A stretch of DNA of 64,000 nucleotides from NCBI RefSeq assembly GCF_006345805.1, contig NC_043014.1, positions 19,158,001-19,222,000 of the forward strand, written 5' to 3'. The stretch is from Octopus sinensis. Its lineage: Eukaryota. The notes beneath the pieces are model-generated. The model saw nothing but the letters and a program-made list of their open reading frames with translations. It did not search any database and was not told the DNA's origin. Made by a program: the position numbers and the translations under genes. This document shows positions 17,595-59,880 of the stretch, piece after piece. The stretch's first letter is position 1. Each line of letters starts with the position of its first letter.

Positions 17595-17972
<378 letters not shown>

Positions 17973-17994
17973 CTAGTAGTCTAGCTTTCATTAC

Positions 17995-18778
17995 GTGCTT
18001 ATTCTGGAAGAAGTGGTAGTCAGTGGGGGCAAAATCTGATGAGTATGGTGGATGATGGAGAACTTTCAAATTCAACTCCTGTAGTTTCGCCAATATCATT
18101 TTTGCGATGTGTGGTCTGGCGTTGTCTTGCAATAAAATAGGAGCGGATCTGTTGACAAATCTAGTCTGTTTGGTTTTTTTTAAGTTTCTGCATCATTTGG
18201 TGCAGTATACTGTGGCCGTAATTGATAAGCCAGGTTTAATGAAATCATAATGGATCACACCTGCGCCAGTCCACCAAATACACGCTGTTAGTTTCTTTTG
18301 TTGAATTTTGCATTTTGAACTGTGTTTTGGTGGCTCGTCTTTGTTCGACCATTGTGCTGAACATTTACGGTTGTTGTATTGGTTCCATTTCTCATCATGT
18401 TACAATTCTATTCAAAACTGATTCATTTCTGTGACGAGAAGGTAGCATAATGCAAGTTTCCAAACGTTGCTGTTTCTGATTTTCATTGAGTACATGTGGA
18501 ACCCACTTATCGAAATTTTTCACTTTACCGATTTCAACTAGGTAAGTCAATATTGTTTGCTTGCTAACACCAAACAACAATGAAAATTCATGGAAACTTT
18601 CAAATGGATCTGGCACAACGGTGGCTTTCAGTTCGTCATTATCCTTCTTTGTTTCTGGTTGACCGCGCTGCTCATTTGTGAGGTCAACCTTACCAGAACG
18701 AAATTTTGCAAACCAATTTGATACTGCCTGCTGTGTCATAACATTAGAATGAAATACTCCATTATAATACTGGCACAA
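17995..18778 (-). mobile_element. Decayed mariner transposase
   Basis: NWFAKFRSGKVDLTNEQRGQP...KWVPHVLNENQKQQRLETC...RIVT; LQDNARPHIAK...VLHHPPYSSDFAPTDYHFF. Confidence 0.92.
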
Positions 18779-31129: not shown

Positions 31130-31600
31130 GCGGCGAGCTGGCAGAATCGTTAGCATGCCGGGTGAAATGCTTAGCAATATTTCGTCTGCCGTTACGTTCT
31201 GACTTCAAATTCCGCCAAGATCGACTTTGCCTTTAACCCTTTCGGGGTCAATTAAATAAGTACCAGTTACGCACTGGGTTCGATATAATCGACTTTACCC
31301 ATTTGTCTGTCCTTGTTTGTCTTCTCTGTGTTTAGCCCCTTGTGGGCAGTAAAAAAATAGGTATTTCGTCTACCGTTACGTTCTGAGATCAAATTCCGCC
31401 GAGGTCGACTTTGCCTTTCATCCTTTCGGGGTCGATAAATTAAGTACAAGTTACGCACTGGGGTCGATCTAATCGACTTAATCCGTTTGTCTGTTCTTGT
31501 TTGCCCCCTCTATGTTTAGCCCCTTGTGGGCAATAAAAAAATAAGAATCGTTAGCACGTTGGACAAAATGCTTATCTTTATTTCGTCTGTCTTTACATTC
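31130..31600 (+). mobile_element. SINE family B, dimeric form plus a third head fragment
   Basis: A box TGGCAGAATCG, B box GA(C/G)TTCAAATTCC; ~185 bp unit restarts at GGTATTTCGTC (31360). Confidence 0.92.
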
Positions 31601-40852: not shown

Positions 40853-41005
40853 AGTATACCCACCAGCCTTCTTCAGGTGTCTTGGCGAAATTTCGAACCT
40901 AAGGTAAATTTCGATGTTGTTGTAATTATTATTATTATTTTGCCTAGAATGGAACTCAGAACCTTGGAGTTAGTAGCCCGCGCTCTCAACCACTACGCTA
41001 TATGC
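40853..41005 (-). mobile_element. tRNA-like head + (AAT)n + 5' half of hammerhead, forming the 3' terminal repeat of the adjacent PLE
   Basis: Reverse complement GCATATAGCGTAGTGGTTGAGAGCGCGGGCTACTAACTCC...CCAAGACAC-CTGAAGA-AGGCTGGTGGGTATA; homologous to 41655-41978. Confidence 0.85.
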
Positions 41006-41560
41006 AATAATGGAATGAATTTTAAGGCTTTTAAATCTAATATTTTCCTATCCTTCCTTAATACCGGTTCCCGTATGCTATTCATATCTGCACACGGTTT
41101 TCGTATTTTCTAGTGGTGTTCACTGTCTATTATTTTAACTTCGTCCTACAGGGGGAGGATGTCTCCATTTTTCCATACGCGATCAGCTATACCCAATTTC
41201 TCAATATCTCCCGTGTCACAGCTTTGCAATATTCCTCCATTTTGAGGGGGCATGTTTCGCTTTTGTATAACCTACCACAACTGCATAGGCTGTAGTACAC
41301 ACAGTTCTTGGTAATATTCTCTTCTATTATTGGTTTTACTCGAAGGAGATATTTGCGAAGTGTTGTATTACTCTTGAATACTGTCCTGATATCATATGGG
41401 CCGCATATCTTTTGTATCTTTTCGGAGAGGACTTTCACATAGGGTAGACAAACTATGGACAATCTGTTGGTTTCATCCCTTCTTTTCTTCATAATTGGAG
41501 TGGATAGTATGTTTTGGGGTTAGTTGCTGCTTAATACATTGTTACTGAGCTTGATCATTT
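40993..41560 (-). mobile_element. Penelope-like element: thumb/linker and GIY-YIG endonuclease remnant
   Basis: ORF 41187-41492 CLPYVKVLSEKIQKICGPYDIRTVFKSNTTLRKYL...KNCVYYSLCSCGRLYKSET..L..EEY.K (cf. VYxIPCxCGxxYIGET.R.L..R..EH); C-terminus PCADMNSIREPVLRK. Confidence 0.9.
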
Positions 41561-41654
41561 CTTCGTGGTGTGTATGTAACACGATTGCTACTTATATTAT
41601 TTGCTCGATGTTTTAGGTACCGAGCAATCCCTCTCTTTACGCTGTATGGATGGT

Positions 41655-41725
41655 GGGAATATGGCGTAGTGGTTAAGAGCGCGGGCTACTAACCCTAAGA
41701 TTCCGAGTTCGGTTCCAGGCAGTGA

Positions 41726-41799
<74 letters not shown>

Positions 41800-41978
41800 T
41801 CGAAAAATACATTAGGAATGAGACCGCAGGTTCGAATTTTTCCCAAGACTGCTGATGTAGGCTGGAGGGTAAATCAGCCGAAACGTTGTGTTAACAACGT
41901 ACAAGATGAGGAGAAATATCCGTCAAATGTAAATAATGCAAATAATGTACATAATTCCTCATCTCTTAAATATAGAAC
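41655..41978 (+). mobile_element. Complete tRNA-head/(AAT)n/hammerhead module, inverted relative to the PLE ORF
   Basis: A box TGGCGTAGTGG (41662-41672), GGG-CTACTAA-CCC arm, B box GTTCGGTTCC; CTGATGT-A-GGCTG...CAGCC-GAA-ACGT-T-GTGT at 41852-41891. Confidence 0.88.
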
Positions 41979-41984
41979 CGAATA

Positions 41985-44576
41985 ATCTGGTTGTTACCAA
42001 CAAACACTCTGTTTAAGCAGAAAAATGAATACAAAACCACCTGGATGCACCCAAGATCTAAGGACTGGCATCTCATAGATTATATTTTAATCAGATAGTG
42101 TGATATGAAAGATGTTTCTAGTGTTCGGGCCATGAGGGCAGCAGAGAGCTAGGCTGACCTTCGTCTAGTGCATGGAAAAATAATGCCTAAAAGTCGACAG
42201 TCTGGTCCTAAGGTACACATAACGTAAAACTTTGCAAATTTCAAATTACGAAGCAGTTTGCAAAGATTCCACGATGCTATGAAATGTATCAATCTTGACC
42301 AAAACATTATGGGAAGATTTCAAATCAAAAGTATTTCAGGCTGCAAGCTCGTCAGAGAGATATAAATATATTAATTTGTCACAGTTCGAAAACTGAGAAA
42401 GTGCCTCAAGACTGGACTGATGCCATTTTAGTCTACTTGTATAAATCGGGGCTATAGAATCTGTGTGGTAATTTTCGGGAGATTTTGCTTTTGTCTGTAG
42501 TTGGAAAAATACTAGCCCACATTCAGTTAGAACGTTTAAACACCTTCATAGTTACATATATGGTATCTGAGTCTCAATGTGATTTTTGCTCCTCCAGGGG
42601 CACAGTTGATTGTACAATTTCAGGAAAAGTGCATTGAACAGAAACTTGCCCTATGCCATTGCTTTGTTGATCTGAGCAAAGCATCTGATATTGTTAATCG
42701 AAATGCTATGTGGCTAATTCTTAGGGAAAAAGGTTGCCCAGAAAAAATTGCAAACACGATCAGGGCTTTGCATCAAGATATGAAAGTTAGAGTTAAGTTT
42801 GATGGTAGGCTTTCTGGATCTTTTGTCGTGGAAAATGAAGTAAAGGAATGAGACCTTGATGCACCCACCCTCTTTGCAATATACTTTGCTGTAGGGCGGT
42901 GAGCTGGCAATATCGCTAGCACGCTGGGCGAAATGCTTAGCGGTATTTCGTCTGCCGTTACGTTCTGAGTTCAAATTCCGCCGAGGTCGACTATGCTTTT
43001 CATCCTTTCGGGGTCGATAAATTAAGTACCAGTTACGCACTGGTGTCGATGTAATCGACTTAATCCGTTTGTCTGCCCTTGTTTGTCCCCTCTGTGTTTA
43101 GCCCCTTGTGGCTAGTAAAGAAATAGGTATTTCGTCTGCCGTTACGTTCTGTGTTCAAATTCCACCGAGGTCGACTTTGCCTTTCATCATTTCGAGGTCG
43201 ATTGAATAAGTACCAGTTACGCACTGGGGTTAATTTAATCGACTTAATCTCTTTGTCTGTCCTTTTTTGCACCCTCTATGTTTAGCACCCTATGGGCAAT
43301 AAAGAAATAAATACACTTTGCTGTTGCGCTGTCACACGCTTTTCAAAACTCCGAAGAGGGTATTTACATAAAATATCGGAGAACAGGGAATGTTTTTAAT
43401 CTGACCAGACTGAAATTCAAAACGAAAGTTTTTATTTCACTCACACTTTAGGGAACACTTATACGCGGACGATTGTGATCTAGTCAGTCATTCTGAAACA
43501 GGTCTGCTATCTCTTGTAGCTGCATTTGTCTCAGCTTGTGATTTTTGGCTTAACCATCAACTTGAAAAAAAAGAACAGTTGTAATGCATCATCTTGCACA
43601 TGGTGCTGTTTGCAACTCATCTACTTGAGGTTGTTGATTCCTTCATCTCCCTTAGAATCTCTGTACAAATTGATGGAAATCTGAACACAGAAATACATCT
43701 GCGAATTCAAAAGGCAGCACAAGCATTTGGTGGCTTGAGTCACGCGCCAACGTCATATGAATAACAACACAAAATTGGCTCTTTACAAATCGATTGTCTT
43801 ACCATCCCTGTTGTATTCTTCTGAAACATGGACATGTTATGAAAGACATTTCAAATTGTTAGAACGATTCCACTAAACATACCTTCATCGCATTTTAAAC
43901 ATTAAATGGAGCCTTTTTTTACTCCAAGCATTCCAATTAAAGCAATGATTCGGAATAACCAAATGAAATGGTGTGGCCATATTTTTCGAATAGCGGATGA
44001 ACACACGCACACAAACAACTGTTGTATGGTGAACCTGCAGAGGTGAAACGCTATCGGTGTAAGCCTAAAAAGAATTTTAAGGACGGCATAATGAGTAACT
44101 TGAAGTCACTTAGAATGGATCCAGAGGACTTAGAAACTCTTGCTTCGGATCGAGCTGGAGGGCGAACAAAAGTGTGGAGTAGAGTGAAAGCGTTTGAAGA
44201 GGCCAGGCTAACGCATGCAAGACTCAAGAGAGATTCAAAGAAGAATATTACGATCGAAAAGTTGAAACACAACGAACTTTTGTGTACACAGTTTGTGACA
44301 GACCATGCATTTCTTTTGCTGGGTTCAAATCTCATTTGCGGATCCATACCTTTCAATGCCGTGTATGCCATAAGGTCTGCAAATCTAGCGGAAGCCTCAA
44401 AAGACATTTTAAGATCCACAAAGATCAGAATTTAACTGCAGCTGTTGGTGGTCCAAATCGGATATGCAAACTATATGGGCGTCTTTCCAAAACATTGTCT
44501 GGTTTAAAAAGCCACATCAGACGCAATGGTGGATATAAGAGGTGGTCAAACTCTGCATAAGGAGTAGATAACCACC
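41985..44576 (+). mobile_element. 5'-truncated RTE-clade LINE (APE end, RT, C-terminal C2H2 fingers) with (TATG)n tail
   Basis: KTTWMHPRSKDWHLIDYIL; QEKCIEQK...FVDLSKASDIVNR; APTLFAIYF; LYADDCDL; LLYSSETWT; LLYGE; ends GGTGGT...ACCACC hairpin then (TATG)n 44577-44650. Confidence 0.93.
42893..43309 (+). mobile_element. SINE family B dimer inserted in the RTE RT, with 15 bp target-site duplication
   Basis: AATATACTTTGCTGT (42878-42892) and AATACACTTTGCTGT (43310-43324) flank it. Confidence 0.93.
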
Positions 44577-48181: not shown

Positions 48182-48627
48182 CTCTGTATAATATATTATA
48201 AAGTAAATAGTGCATTATTCTATAATACGAGCGAATCGGAGAACCTCTTTGTGATGGTTTGATTTGCTTGACATACCTTTCAAATTACATTCTACTGTGT
48301 TCATTTAGGAAATAATACATTCAAGAAAAACGACAGGATGTTCACAGCTGGATCTGTTCGTTCAAGTTTGATTTGAGTTTTAATGACATAAAAAAATATA
48401 ACATTATACTCTATTCTGTACTATCTATTGTATTTAACACTACTTACCCCGTCGTGTTGTTAACAAGCTATCCCTTTCTTTCGCCCTCTCGTCTCTATCC
48501 TTATTATACATTTCTCCATACTTCAGTATTTTTCCTCTGCCGCTTCACCATCCTCTTTCGTCGAATTTTCCCCTCATTTTCCTGGCTGCATCTATAATTA
48601 GAACCCATCTCTATTCTAATTGTGTAT

Positions 48628-48825
48628 TCTTGAGATGAGGAAATTTTATATTAAGTATTAGTCAAAGTGGTGTCCTCAACTTGATTGCTGCTTTCAATAC
48701 GTTTTAATACGCTCCAGCCTTCTTCAAGTGTTTTGTGATTCAGCTCAGTGCTTTTCCTGGGATTGAACTCAAAACCCGTAGGTGACTGCACTACATTAAC
48801 AAGCGCCTTTATCCACTACGCTAAT
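48628..48825 (-). mobile_element. Old, degenerate copy of the tRNA-head/hammerhead module
   Basis: GAGATGAGGAA...GTCCTCA.CTTG...CTCCAGCCTTCTTCA.GTGT...GATTGAACTC...CCACTACGC in the same order as 57286-57578. Confidence 0.6.
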
Positions 48826-57285: not shown

Positions 57286-57607
57286 AGTTCTGTATTTAAG
57301 AGATGAGGAATTATGTACATTATTTACATTATTTATATGATTTACATTATTTACATTATTTACAATTGACGGATATTTGTCCTCATCTTGTTTTTTGTTA
57401 ACGCAACTTTTCGGCTGATATACCCTCTGTAGCCTTCTTCAGGTTTCTTGGGGAAATTTCAAACCTGGGTTCTCATTCCTAAGATTGTTGTTGTTGTTGT
57501 TGTTCAGGTCACTGCTTGAAATCGAACTCGGAATCTTGGGGTTAGTAGCCCGCGCTCTTAACCACTGCACCATATGCCAGTGGGCATATGGCGTAGTAGT
57601 TAAGAGC
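57286..57607 (-). mobile_element. Solo tRNA-head/hammerhead module with a short head-to-head inverted head fragment
   Basis: 57286-57578 is the reverse complement homolog of 41655-41978 (CTGAAGA-AGGCT...AGCC-GAAA); 57583-57607 GGCATATGGCGTAGTAGTTAAGAGC restarts the head on +. Confidence 0.88.
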
Positions 57608-57699
57608 TTGACGTGCGCAGTAGCGAAGGCAGTGCCAATTTCCCTGACACGCATTTAGCGCAGGATTCCTTCGAGGTCTTGAAGCTTTTTAAGAAAGTT

Positions 57700-58690
57700 A
57701 CACTCTTTAGAGCGCAGAGGGAGAGTGTAATTTACATTTCAGACGCAGATTTGGTTTCGGAAAGGCTAATTATTATAAAAGTTTTGAAAATCTGCTTAAA
57801 TAATCCCAAATGTCTTTGCAGGTACCGACTAAATCCCCGAATGTGTATCGTGAGTATGGGGTAACAGTATTAATTCATCTAGAAGGCATCTAGATAGGGT
57901 TTTTATTATTGGGTGGAAATATAGGTTATTACGAGGATCACAAATTTTTAATCTATAGAGAGAGATGATAAACAGGTATTCAGTGGATCGTAAAGTTTAT
58001 TGCGATCGTATTAACTAATTAATTAGTTGATTGTTAATGAGGAAAAACGTCAACAACCAATGATACAACTCTCAGAAAAAGAATGGGAACGAAAGTGGGC
58101 TAGTGAGGAAATCACAGGAGGTAATTAGAAAAAGCATCGCGAATAATGTGCTGGCCTTTTCTGTTTCATTTCTGCAACACGAAACTCGAAGGTTGTATTA
58201 CAAGGGCTAACGCACAGTAAGACACAGTGGAAAGAAAGCCGTTTGACCGGTTGGAGTGGAGAGGCGTAACGAGGCAAGGGTTTGGATTTTGACCCGATTT
58301 CAAGAGAATATGCGCGGATTTCCAGCGGCACTTTACTCAACTGCTCATGGTGAGCGATGGGCTAAAGATAGAATTTACTTTGAAGACCTACTGCAAACAT
58401 TGGTTGAAAATTAGTGAGATACGGATGGTAGTAATTAGCTCTACGCGGGGCAAATCACTTAGTTTGGATGCTCTACCCTATAAATGCGAGACGTCTTCAC
58501 TCAGTTGTGTAAATCGATGCTGAGAAAAGACATACACAAGATTAATTTACTAGACAAGTTCCGGTCAACGATTTCGCACAATGCAGAGCACAAAATTTTG
58601 ATCATGTTGTTAGCAAACAGTTTGTTATCAGTAGTTACCTCGTTAACGAGCAAGCATGCAATCAGATCTATCTACGACATCCCACACTTT
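57700..58690 (+). mobile_element. Decayed L1/Tx1-clade ORF2 (APE end to RT N-terminus)
   Basis: HLDRVF...DHKF; ICADFQRHFTQLL; RGKSLSLDALPY (cf. GKSPGLDGLP); LRKD...KFRSTISHNAEHKILIMLLANSL (cf. NFRPITLLNxxxKILAKVLAxRL). Confidence 0.72.
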
Positions 58691-59419
58691 TTTTAATATA
58701 TTATAGAGTAGATAGATAACAAACCTGGCTGTCAATGAGGTCCCATTTTCAGAGGCTAGATCGCAAAGTTATACACTGCTGCCTACCCGAAGGTTAAATT
58801 TGTGAAACGTTGTAGGTTCCAACTTAATTGTTACCGTTTTAATTCTGCCACTTTTGGCAATCTCGTTAATAATTGGCCGATTTGTATTATTAGTTGTGTT
58901 GACGTTGATAAATCGAATTAGATAAAAAAAAAATTACAATATAAAAAAAAACCTATTTGTTCACATAATTCACAATTTGAAATTTAGCTAAAAATTAAAG
59001 CAGAAACATCAATTTTGCTTTTACAACTGAAATTTTTAAAAAAATTAATGGTAAAACGGTGTTGGGAGGAAGACACTGAAGTTAAGAACGAATATTAATG
59101 AAAGATGATGTAGTATCTACTTTAATAAGGATAAAAGCATTAATGTTTATAGAATAAAAATATATACTTTATATGATGAAGAAAATCTAGAAAAAAATGT
59201 ATGTAGACACGTATATGTATACCAAGATACGTTCAGGCATACAAACGCGCGCACACAGGTAAACGGTTTGATAAGAGATAATAAGAAGGGGAATATAAAA
59301 TATGTATAATGATGATAGAAATATTGATAAACGCTGTAGTAAAAAAATATGGCAAACAAAAAATAATATAATACTATACTAAGACTGAAAGTGAAATATC
59401 AATATTTAAGGAAGTAAGA

Positions 59420-59880
59420 GGGCGGCGAGCTAGCAGAAGCGTTAGCGCGCCGGCGAAATGCTTATCATTATTTCGTCTGCCGCTACGTTCTGAGTTCAAA
59501 TTCTGCCGAGGTCGACTTTGCCTTTCATCCTTTCGGGGTCGATTAAATAAGTATCAGTTACGCACTAGGGTCGATATAATCGACTTAATCCGTTTGTCTG
59601 TCCTTGTTTGTCCTGTCTGTGCTTAGCCCCTTGTGGGTAGTAAAGCAAATAGGTATTTCGTCTGCCGCAACGTTCTGAGTTCAAATTCTACCGAGGTCGA
59701 CTTTGCTTTTCATCCTTTCGGTGTCGATTAAATAAGTACCAGTTACGCACTGGGGTCGATATGATGGACTTAATCCGTTTGTCTGTCCTTGTTCGTCCTC
59801 TCTGTGGGTAGTAAAGAAATATGTATTTCTCCCGTTCTGTGTTCAAATTTCGGCGAACTCGACTTTGCTATTCATCCTGT
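59420..59880 (+). mobile_element. SINE family B, dimer plus partial third unit
   Basis: Units restart at GGTATTTCGTC (59652) and TGTATTTC (59822). Confidence 0.9.

Follow-up and report, generated by a model that had tools for sequence, protein, structure and literature searches.

The module at positions 57286 to 57607 of the 64,000-nt stretch of Octopus sinensis DNA analysed here (the window) can be identified as the pLTR, or terminal repeat, of a Penelope-like element (PLE) of 2,649 nt, whose open reading frame (ORF) encodes a reverse transcriptase (RT) plus a GIY-YIG domain. The reading that we favor, with a probability of about 0.62, is that the PLE is headed by a tRNA-like sequence, that solo copies of the pLTR come from RNA starting just upstream of this head, at a predicted polymerase III start, and that the head-to-head joints arise from twin-primed cDNAs.

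Parsing of the locus against the consensus of this family, hereafter family A, confirms that a minus-strand solo module is joined head-to-head to a plus-strand restart of its own head, as the first-pass annotation had it. The 25-bp arms that it described (57554-57578 and 57583-57607) are present and match at 22 of the 25 pairs. Its 4-nt spacer does not stand; by the family consensus and the ORF-linked copies, these bases comprise the 2-nt loop of a native hairpin and one mutated base pair. The true arms comprise head +1..+26, with G1 of the minus arm at 57579 (mutated relative to the consensus) and G1 of the plus arm at 57582. The features of the locus are as follows.

57286..57581, minus strand: solo pLTR of PLE family A, from consensus +271 back to -2 (head, microsatellite, ORF start, hammerhead, tail)
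57507..57579, minus strand: tRNA-like head, with the A box at about 57562-57572 and the B box at about 57518-57528
57580..57581, no strand: 2-nt loop of the native leader hairpin and centre of the palindrome, complement of the element's own leader
57582..57607, plus strand: short inverted arm, head +1..+26, then joined to the flank (consensus parse)
57474..57476, minus strand: ATG of the PLE ORF (consensus +110, by alignment), inside the pLTR and upstream of the hammerhead
57400..57447, minus strand: minimal type I hammerhead with a CUGA-GA core, 5-bp stem II, GAAA and a loopless stem III (read from sequence and alignment)
57286..57335, minus strand: PLE tail, ending at the distal 3'-end cluster (+271; consensus parse)

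Stems I and III of the focal hammerhead carry substitutions, and this ribozyme is likely inactive. Comparison of the flanks and parsing of the palindrome reveal no target-site duplication (TSD) and no recognisable second cDNA for the focal copy, and no empty site for the insertion is seen among DNA contigs. A contig from a sequencing run spans 57549-58200 with zero differences, and may be the assembly's own source. Neither in the window nor in the scanned copies do ARAGORN and Rfam call a tRNA or a hammerhead; the motifs were read from the sequence.

The family A consensus unit of 2,649 nt contains a single 836-aa ORF, with its ATG at +110 and its stop 29 nt before the next head. The consensus translation includes the RT motifs GLAMGSP and YVDD and, at C-terminal residues 728-743, the GIY-YIG motif VYSIP..YKGET. 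One fragment gives a weak RVT_1 match (E=0.002), a Pfam scan of three longer fragments gives none, and a search of solved structures returns no match. The protein has 1,583 homologs, with PF00078 on most of those listed and PF01541 on 3 of 120 among the matches listed; the N-terminal peptide encoded by the hammerhead is also found in 2 of 22 full-length homologs. Family A is represented in the window by a second insertion at 41 kb, made of two parts.

40855..41658, minus strand: 5'-truncated family A PLE, with the ORF 3' end including the GIY-YIG region (41032-41658) and the 3' pLTR (40855-41005)
41655..41988, plus strand: inverted pLTR partner arm (about +1..+280) of the 40855..41658 insertion (consensus parse)

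The inverted copy at 41655 begins at the head (+5), as had been noted, and is joined to the 40855-41658 PLE through a shared 4-nt match; a TSD was looked for in the flanks of this copy and none was found. The ORF-bearing copies recovered with the 41-kb ORF fragment have the module at their end, and near-full-length copies have it at their start, which identifies the module as the pLTR. Its order is head (+1..+73), microsatellite, ORF start, minimal type I hammerhead and tail, and in ORF-linked copies a native 5-bp hairpin with a 2-nt loop lies directly before the head. The pLTRs stand in direct or inverted orientation with an optional tail and carry the minimal type I hammerhead, as in PLEs (this motif was read from the sequence, Rfam being silent). 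The resemblance to Poseidon PAc is one of architecture. In six loci (L150, L156, L158, L162, L169, L178) the pLTR microsatellite is split by 0.3-2.1 kb of other sequence, and it is possibly a hotspot of insertion or expansion. Long family A copies (e.g. L098, L100, L165, L184) show many small internal deletions, mostly of 8-30 nt.

Among 20 distinct tRNA sequences of the genome, the head best matches tRNA-Arg(TCT), with a score of 59 against a shuffled maximum of 44.5. The unit contains the A+B box pattern a single time, at +8, and 10 of 2,000 shuffles contain it. Both boxes are kept between family A and a second, ORF-deleted family (family B, below), though their spacing differs by about 10 nt. 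Neither ARAGORN nor Rfam calls a tRNA fold in the head. The sense strand of the 2,649-nt consensus unit has zero runs of four T (T4), against 2.9 expected in the ORF by synonymous codon shuffling (P=0.026) and 4.7 in the unit by base shuffling (P=0.004), a modest result that rests on a consensus. On this indirect evidence, together with the pile-up of 5' ends described below, we predict that the module is transcribed by polymerase III. The T4 result was set against 33 related metagenome ORFs (79 loci gave 44 long ORFs, of which 11 were removed as redundant). These are not T4-depleted, with 331 runs observed versus 302 expected, and a single one, in L295, has zero. L295 (4001-6100) is the closest metagenome relative, with a T4-free ORF, a similar hammerhead and T runs in the 3' region; as no tRNA head is visible in it, the link between T4 absence and polymerase III is weakened. 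The A+B box pattern was not found near the 33 related ORFs. When a distant PLE protein was used to query the source genome, family A only was returned among the 30 loci examined, and the genome therefore supplies no internal T4 control. Three raw RNA runs are uninformative on this point, as their reads fall equally on the two strands and none of the runs reveals a start at the head. The loose ends of reads before the head are the inverted head (531, 409 and 384 reads); they represent copies inside host transcripts or library artefacts and are not taken as evidence of expression. One locus (L251) carries seven tRNA-Cys-like genes clustered within 3 kb of the genome.

The family is abundant, and thousands of copies of the module lack the gene: an exact 28-mer in the module has 8,001 matches in the source genome, a head 24-mer has 3,221 exact matches, and the ORF-end-to-head junction has 282. 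The exact 26-nt head-to-head pattern gives 53+67 strand matches and its reversed control 0, which corresponds, as counted from the listing, to about 95 sites because self-complementary sites count twice. The 5' ends were tallied in the first 100 of the 8,001 28-mer matches, all on one contig; 98 fell within 90 fetched loci, one duplicate was removed (n=89), and four loci were hand-corrected. Fifteen of these 89 begin deep in the ORF, 2 at -100..-13, 39 at -12..+6, 7 at +7..+70, 14 in the microsatellite, where ends are not placeable, and 12 further in. Put differently, of the 56 copies that extend to +6, 39 end within -12..+6, versus 7 of 63 in +7..+70. Random 5' ends of solo copies, which the first-pass annotation had named as contrary to its reading, are not seen in the sampled 89, where the pile-up at the head is sharp. 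Its view that the RNA 5' end is fixed at the head start is upheld by this pile-up (39/56) but has to be shifted, for the end is not fixed at tRNA +1: only 6 of the 39 head-starting copies begin exactly there and 25 begin upstream, the hairpin blurring placement by a few bases. Since the leader dinucleotide is also retained in 22 of 28 parsed junctions, the template RNA likely begins a few bases upstream of the head. Cleavage exactly at tRNA +1 was rejected on the same retention of the leader, and hammerhead cleavage as the source of the 5' ends was rejected because family A has no clear pile-up at +180.

A set of 59 loci selected by their ORF, 33 of them with a partner arm, bears on the nature of the pile-up. 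Here partner arms on long templates stop at the head (+1..+7) in 4 of 21 cases and pass it in 17 of 21 (P=9e-5). The head is therefore no general roadblock to RT, and the pile-up looks like an RNA start. Upstream continuation is nevertheless seen in 3 of the 7 near-full-length copies that reach the head and in most family B copies, which run on upstream of it; read-through RNA thus appears common, and this counts against the explanation that we favor.

The first-pass annotation proposed that the module moves without the ORF. This is true of family B, which is ORF-less and propagates separately, but the focal module is a family A pLTR and gives no sign of a solo-specific lineage. The "older copy" placed at 48628-48825 is likewise real (score 106.5, while 289 random segments of the window reach at most 55.5) but is different from the focal module, being a member of ORF-deleted family B.

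48618..48823, minus strand: family B copy, a 299-nt ORF-deleted derivative with head, hammerhead and tail (alignment to the family B consensus)

Thirty family B loci were chosen by similarity to this copy at 48.6 kb. Their 299-nt unit has the ORF start fused to the ORF end, a joint covered in 14 of the 30 loci, and no RT match is found across the 30. Family B is older than family A (87% versus 94% identity to consensus). Its unit retains boxes A and B as well as the leader hairpin, the core of the hammerhead and the tail, and is free of T4; the copies are arranged mostly as partial tandems, with no full multimer in the 30 loci. Judged by its sequence, family B is a true non-autonomous derivative that arose by ORF deletion and has its own masters. 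In four further loci (L211, L221, L222, L224) the ORF start, up to about +500-680, is succeeded by a further tail; these internally deleted, tandem-like forms resemble putative steps toward family B.

Within family A, solos (68 heads) and ORF-linked pLTRs (60 heads) share common variants, with no variant private to solos, and the two are alike in divergence (4.8% vs 5.3%, P=0.24), so that solos may derive from the 5' pLTR of full-length RNA and not from solo masters. Internal deletions occur in 6 of 39 solos versus 10 of 17 body-linked copies (P=0.003), which suggests that the two were copied from different templates; small internal deletions in the pLTR run at 2.7 per kb in body-linked copies versus 0.5 in solos. 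Full-length RNA, through its 5' pLTR, and solo transcripts are thus both possible sources of the family A solos.

Two other accounts of the solos have to be weighed against these data. That the focal module represents a SINE or retrozyme family in its own right, with separate masters and mobilised in trans, we consider somewhat unlikely. It would fit the 39 of 89 insertions that are head-starting solos, and family B, with its deletion joint in 14 of 30 loci, demonstrates that ORF-less masters can amplify; the focal module, however, retains the ATG and lacks the joint of family B, and no solo-private variant is found among the 68 solo and 60 ORF-linked heads. The alternative in which the tRNA head is a passenger, such as an old SINE in a UTR, with transcription by polymerase II and with solos as 5'-truncated copies ending at an RT stop or an RNA processing site, is in our view unlikely. 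In its favor, solos and ORF-linked pLTRs form a common population, the L295 ORF is T4-free without a head, known PLE promoters lie in the pLTR and have TATA/Inr-like motifs (PMC3846280), and autonomous retrotransposons are described as polymerase II-driven (PMC10886601). An RT stop at the head is nonetheless difficult to reconcile with the long-template partner arms that pass it in 17 of 21 cases, and a cut at tRNA +1 would not leave the leader dinucleotide seen in 22 of 28 junctions. The lower frequency of internal deletions in solos, suggesting a different template, and the conservation of the boxes between families A and B also argue against a passenger head.

Mobilisation by a PLE is supported, as are an excess of inversions and the lack of LINE-type tails. 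Inversions make up 58 of the 89 sampled insertions (65%), and the 3' ends fall in two clusters, +217..+256 and +266..+288, inside the ORF start. The first-pass annotation had named ordinary LINE-type TSDs and tails as contrary to its reading. TSDs exist and go with inversions, and hence do not discriminate PLE from LINE products: TSDs of at least 12 bp are present at 19 of 72 loci with non-simple flanks, all inverted (0 in shuffled pairs), and TSDs of at least 10 bp at 20 of 50 inverted versus 0 of 22 non-inverted loci, the length being 12-17 bp as called. Three of the 89 loci (L092, L097, L191) have a long palindrome at the head, and several others retain shorter remnants of one. The homology between primer and template at the priming sites is weak, with a mean overlap of 3.3 nt versus 1.8-2.1 simulated.

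The paired arms of inverted insertions end at two sites about 40 nt apart. In the 43 inverted loci with both arms complete, the pairing is long/short in 38, short/short in 5 and long/long in 0 (P=1e-7), and this rule of one long and one short arm points to twin priming. The ORF-selected set yields 10 mixed, 2 short/short and 1 long/long among 13 pairs; the long/long pair counts against the favored explanation. Arms are joined over 0-5 nt of shared sequence. In 23 of the 43 loci, the second arm (that with the later 5' start) has 3' sequence absent from the first, so the second arm was not copied from the first and simple fold-back cannot give it.

These last data weigh on the idea that inverted arms form when one cDNA, or an antisense RNA, folds back at the native hairpin and primes itself (self-priming, or fold-back), which we regard as unlikely to account for the inverted arms. 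Self-priming has been proposed (PMC3846280), and the native 5-bp hairpin stands at the joint and is kept in family B. In 24 exact palindromes, moreover, one arm is 12-24 nt long in 23 and then jumps to a downstream segment or to the flank, a short arm of the same kind as the 26-nt arm of the focal copy. The loop lies where fold-back predicts in 11 of 17 readable cases, the orientation of the focal copy included, but is opposite in the other 6 (P=0.33), so that annealing of two leader-bearing ends is needed for some palindromes. Most inversion joints are far from the hairpin. Pure fold-back as the general route was rejected on the extra 3' sequence in 23/43 and the opposite loops in 6/17; it may explain other palindromes, the focal copy among them.

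In the twin-priming reading that we prefer, the protein of the element would make a staggered cut of about 11-12 nt in the target, after which the cDNA from one cut end would be primed at about +272-280, the distal site, and that from the other at about +230-248, the proximal site, on the same RNA, and the two cDNAs would meet via 0-5 nt of shared sequence. When both cDNAs reach the RNA start, the self-complementary leader hairpin would yield a near-perfect palindrome, one arm of which, usually 12-26 nt, would come from extension of a folded-back end or from a jump onto the final bases of the RNA. As the promoter would travel in each copy and priming would be internal, a solo pLTR would be a self-sufficient SINE-like template, and it is through such a template that family B may have become an independent parasite. 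In L1 twin priming, both target ends prime, and the outcome is an inversion with a microhomology joint and a duplication. The L1 arms copy separate parts of the RNA, whereas those of family A overlap, with starts about 40 nt from each other, and are found in the majority of insertions.

Several of these properties have precedents. In vitro, both strands are extended by a Poseidon protein, which begins synthesis at two neighbouring internal sites (PMC11167929). Family A is like Poseidon PAc of Anolis in that the ORF starts at the hammerhead and two adjacent internal RT starts define the tail, and we count as further likenesses that in PAc both target strands are cut and extended and that hammerhead cleavage is dispensable (PMC11167929). 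In contrast to family A, PAc is described with no tRNA-type promoter, and no start-site pairing within one insertion is reported for it; the ATG of family A, unlike that of PAc, lies about 35 nt upstream of the ribozyme core. The Penelope elements of Adineta vaga share with family A inverted pLTRs, head-to-head palindromes, a tail on one arm, solo pLTRs in trans and the presence of TSDs, there of 8-10 bp, but have TATA/Inr-like promoter motifs and low copy number, and their inversions are explained by self-priming on an antisense template (PMC3846280). A tail on one end of PLE insertions (PMC8557442) and minimal hammerheads in PLEs (PMC4209133) have already been reported. The SINE-like SM-alpha and Sj-alpha repeats of schistosomes likewise place a polymerase III promoter before a hammerhead, in tandem (PMC6765202); no autonomous PLE partner is named in the available part of that source, whereas the head of family A sits in the pLTR of a protein-coding element. 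Family B resembles non-LTR retrozymes, which are non-autonomous hammerhead units of about 300 nt related to PLE pLTRs (PMC7229834; bioRxiv 10.64898/2026.07.22.740005). Retrozymes are defined there by tandem arrays and circular RNA, whereas family B, as known from its sequence, is dispersed with partial tandems; it also differs, by these descriptions, in its tRNA head and its origin by ORF deletion. A small-RNA-derived promoter in a terminal repeat, possibly from a SINE insertion, is likewise found in the TRIMp3 elements Helenus, Ajax and Cassandra, which differ in being of the LTR class and non-autonomous only, their autonomous partners being expected to use polymerase II (PMC10886601). The available text of two cephalopod repeat papers mentions PLEs and SINEs only as classes (PMC13282606, PMC6962438). 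In openly available papers we found neither an autonomous PLE with a tRNA-type promoter nor a twin-priming account of PLE inversions; the family may be catalogued in Repbase, Dfam, subscription papers or supplements. Head-to-head palindromes and TSDs are known PLE features; the element behind them is a probable new variant.

These results link PLE terminal repeats, hammerhead SINEs and retrozymes, which are usually treated apart, in that one genome carries an autonomous element, its solos and an ORF-deleted derivative. The rule of one long and one short arm offers a direct mechanism for the long-unexplained PLE signature of inverted pLTRs plus a tail, and can be tested on thousands of copies. 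We also entertain, tentatively and at less than an even chance, a further-reaching proposal, in which the autonomous element, having acquired a tRNA promoter in its terminal repeat, would be transcribed by polymerase III from end to end (2.6 kb, with no terminator), would shed both the solos and the ORF-deleted parasite and would integrate through obligate twin priming from two start sites of a single RNA. If polymerase III makes a coding RNA, the usual division between autonomous elements transcribed by polymerase II and SINEs transcribed by polymerase III is broken, and how an uncapped RNA gets translated becomes a question.

The window holds other repeats. A decayed LINE-like remnant at 42000-44400 (plus strand), which we take to be RTE-like, adjoins the inverted pLTR arm of the 41-kb insertion and is interrupted by a SINE at 42893-43310. 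This SINE belongs to another abundant SINE-like family, with copies at 31130-31544, 42893-43310 and 59419-59806 and an internal tandem duplication of about 184 nt. Finally, an open frame at 17728-18192 (minus strand) resembles the catalytic end of a transposase, presumably of the mariner type by its motif.
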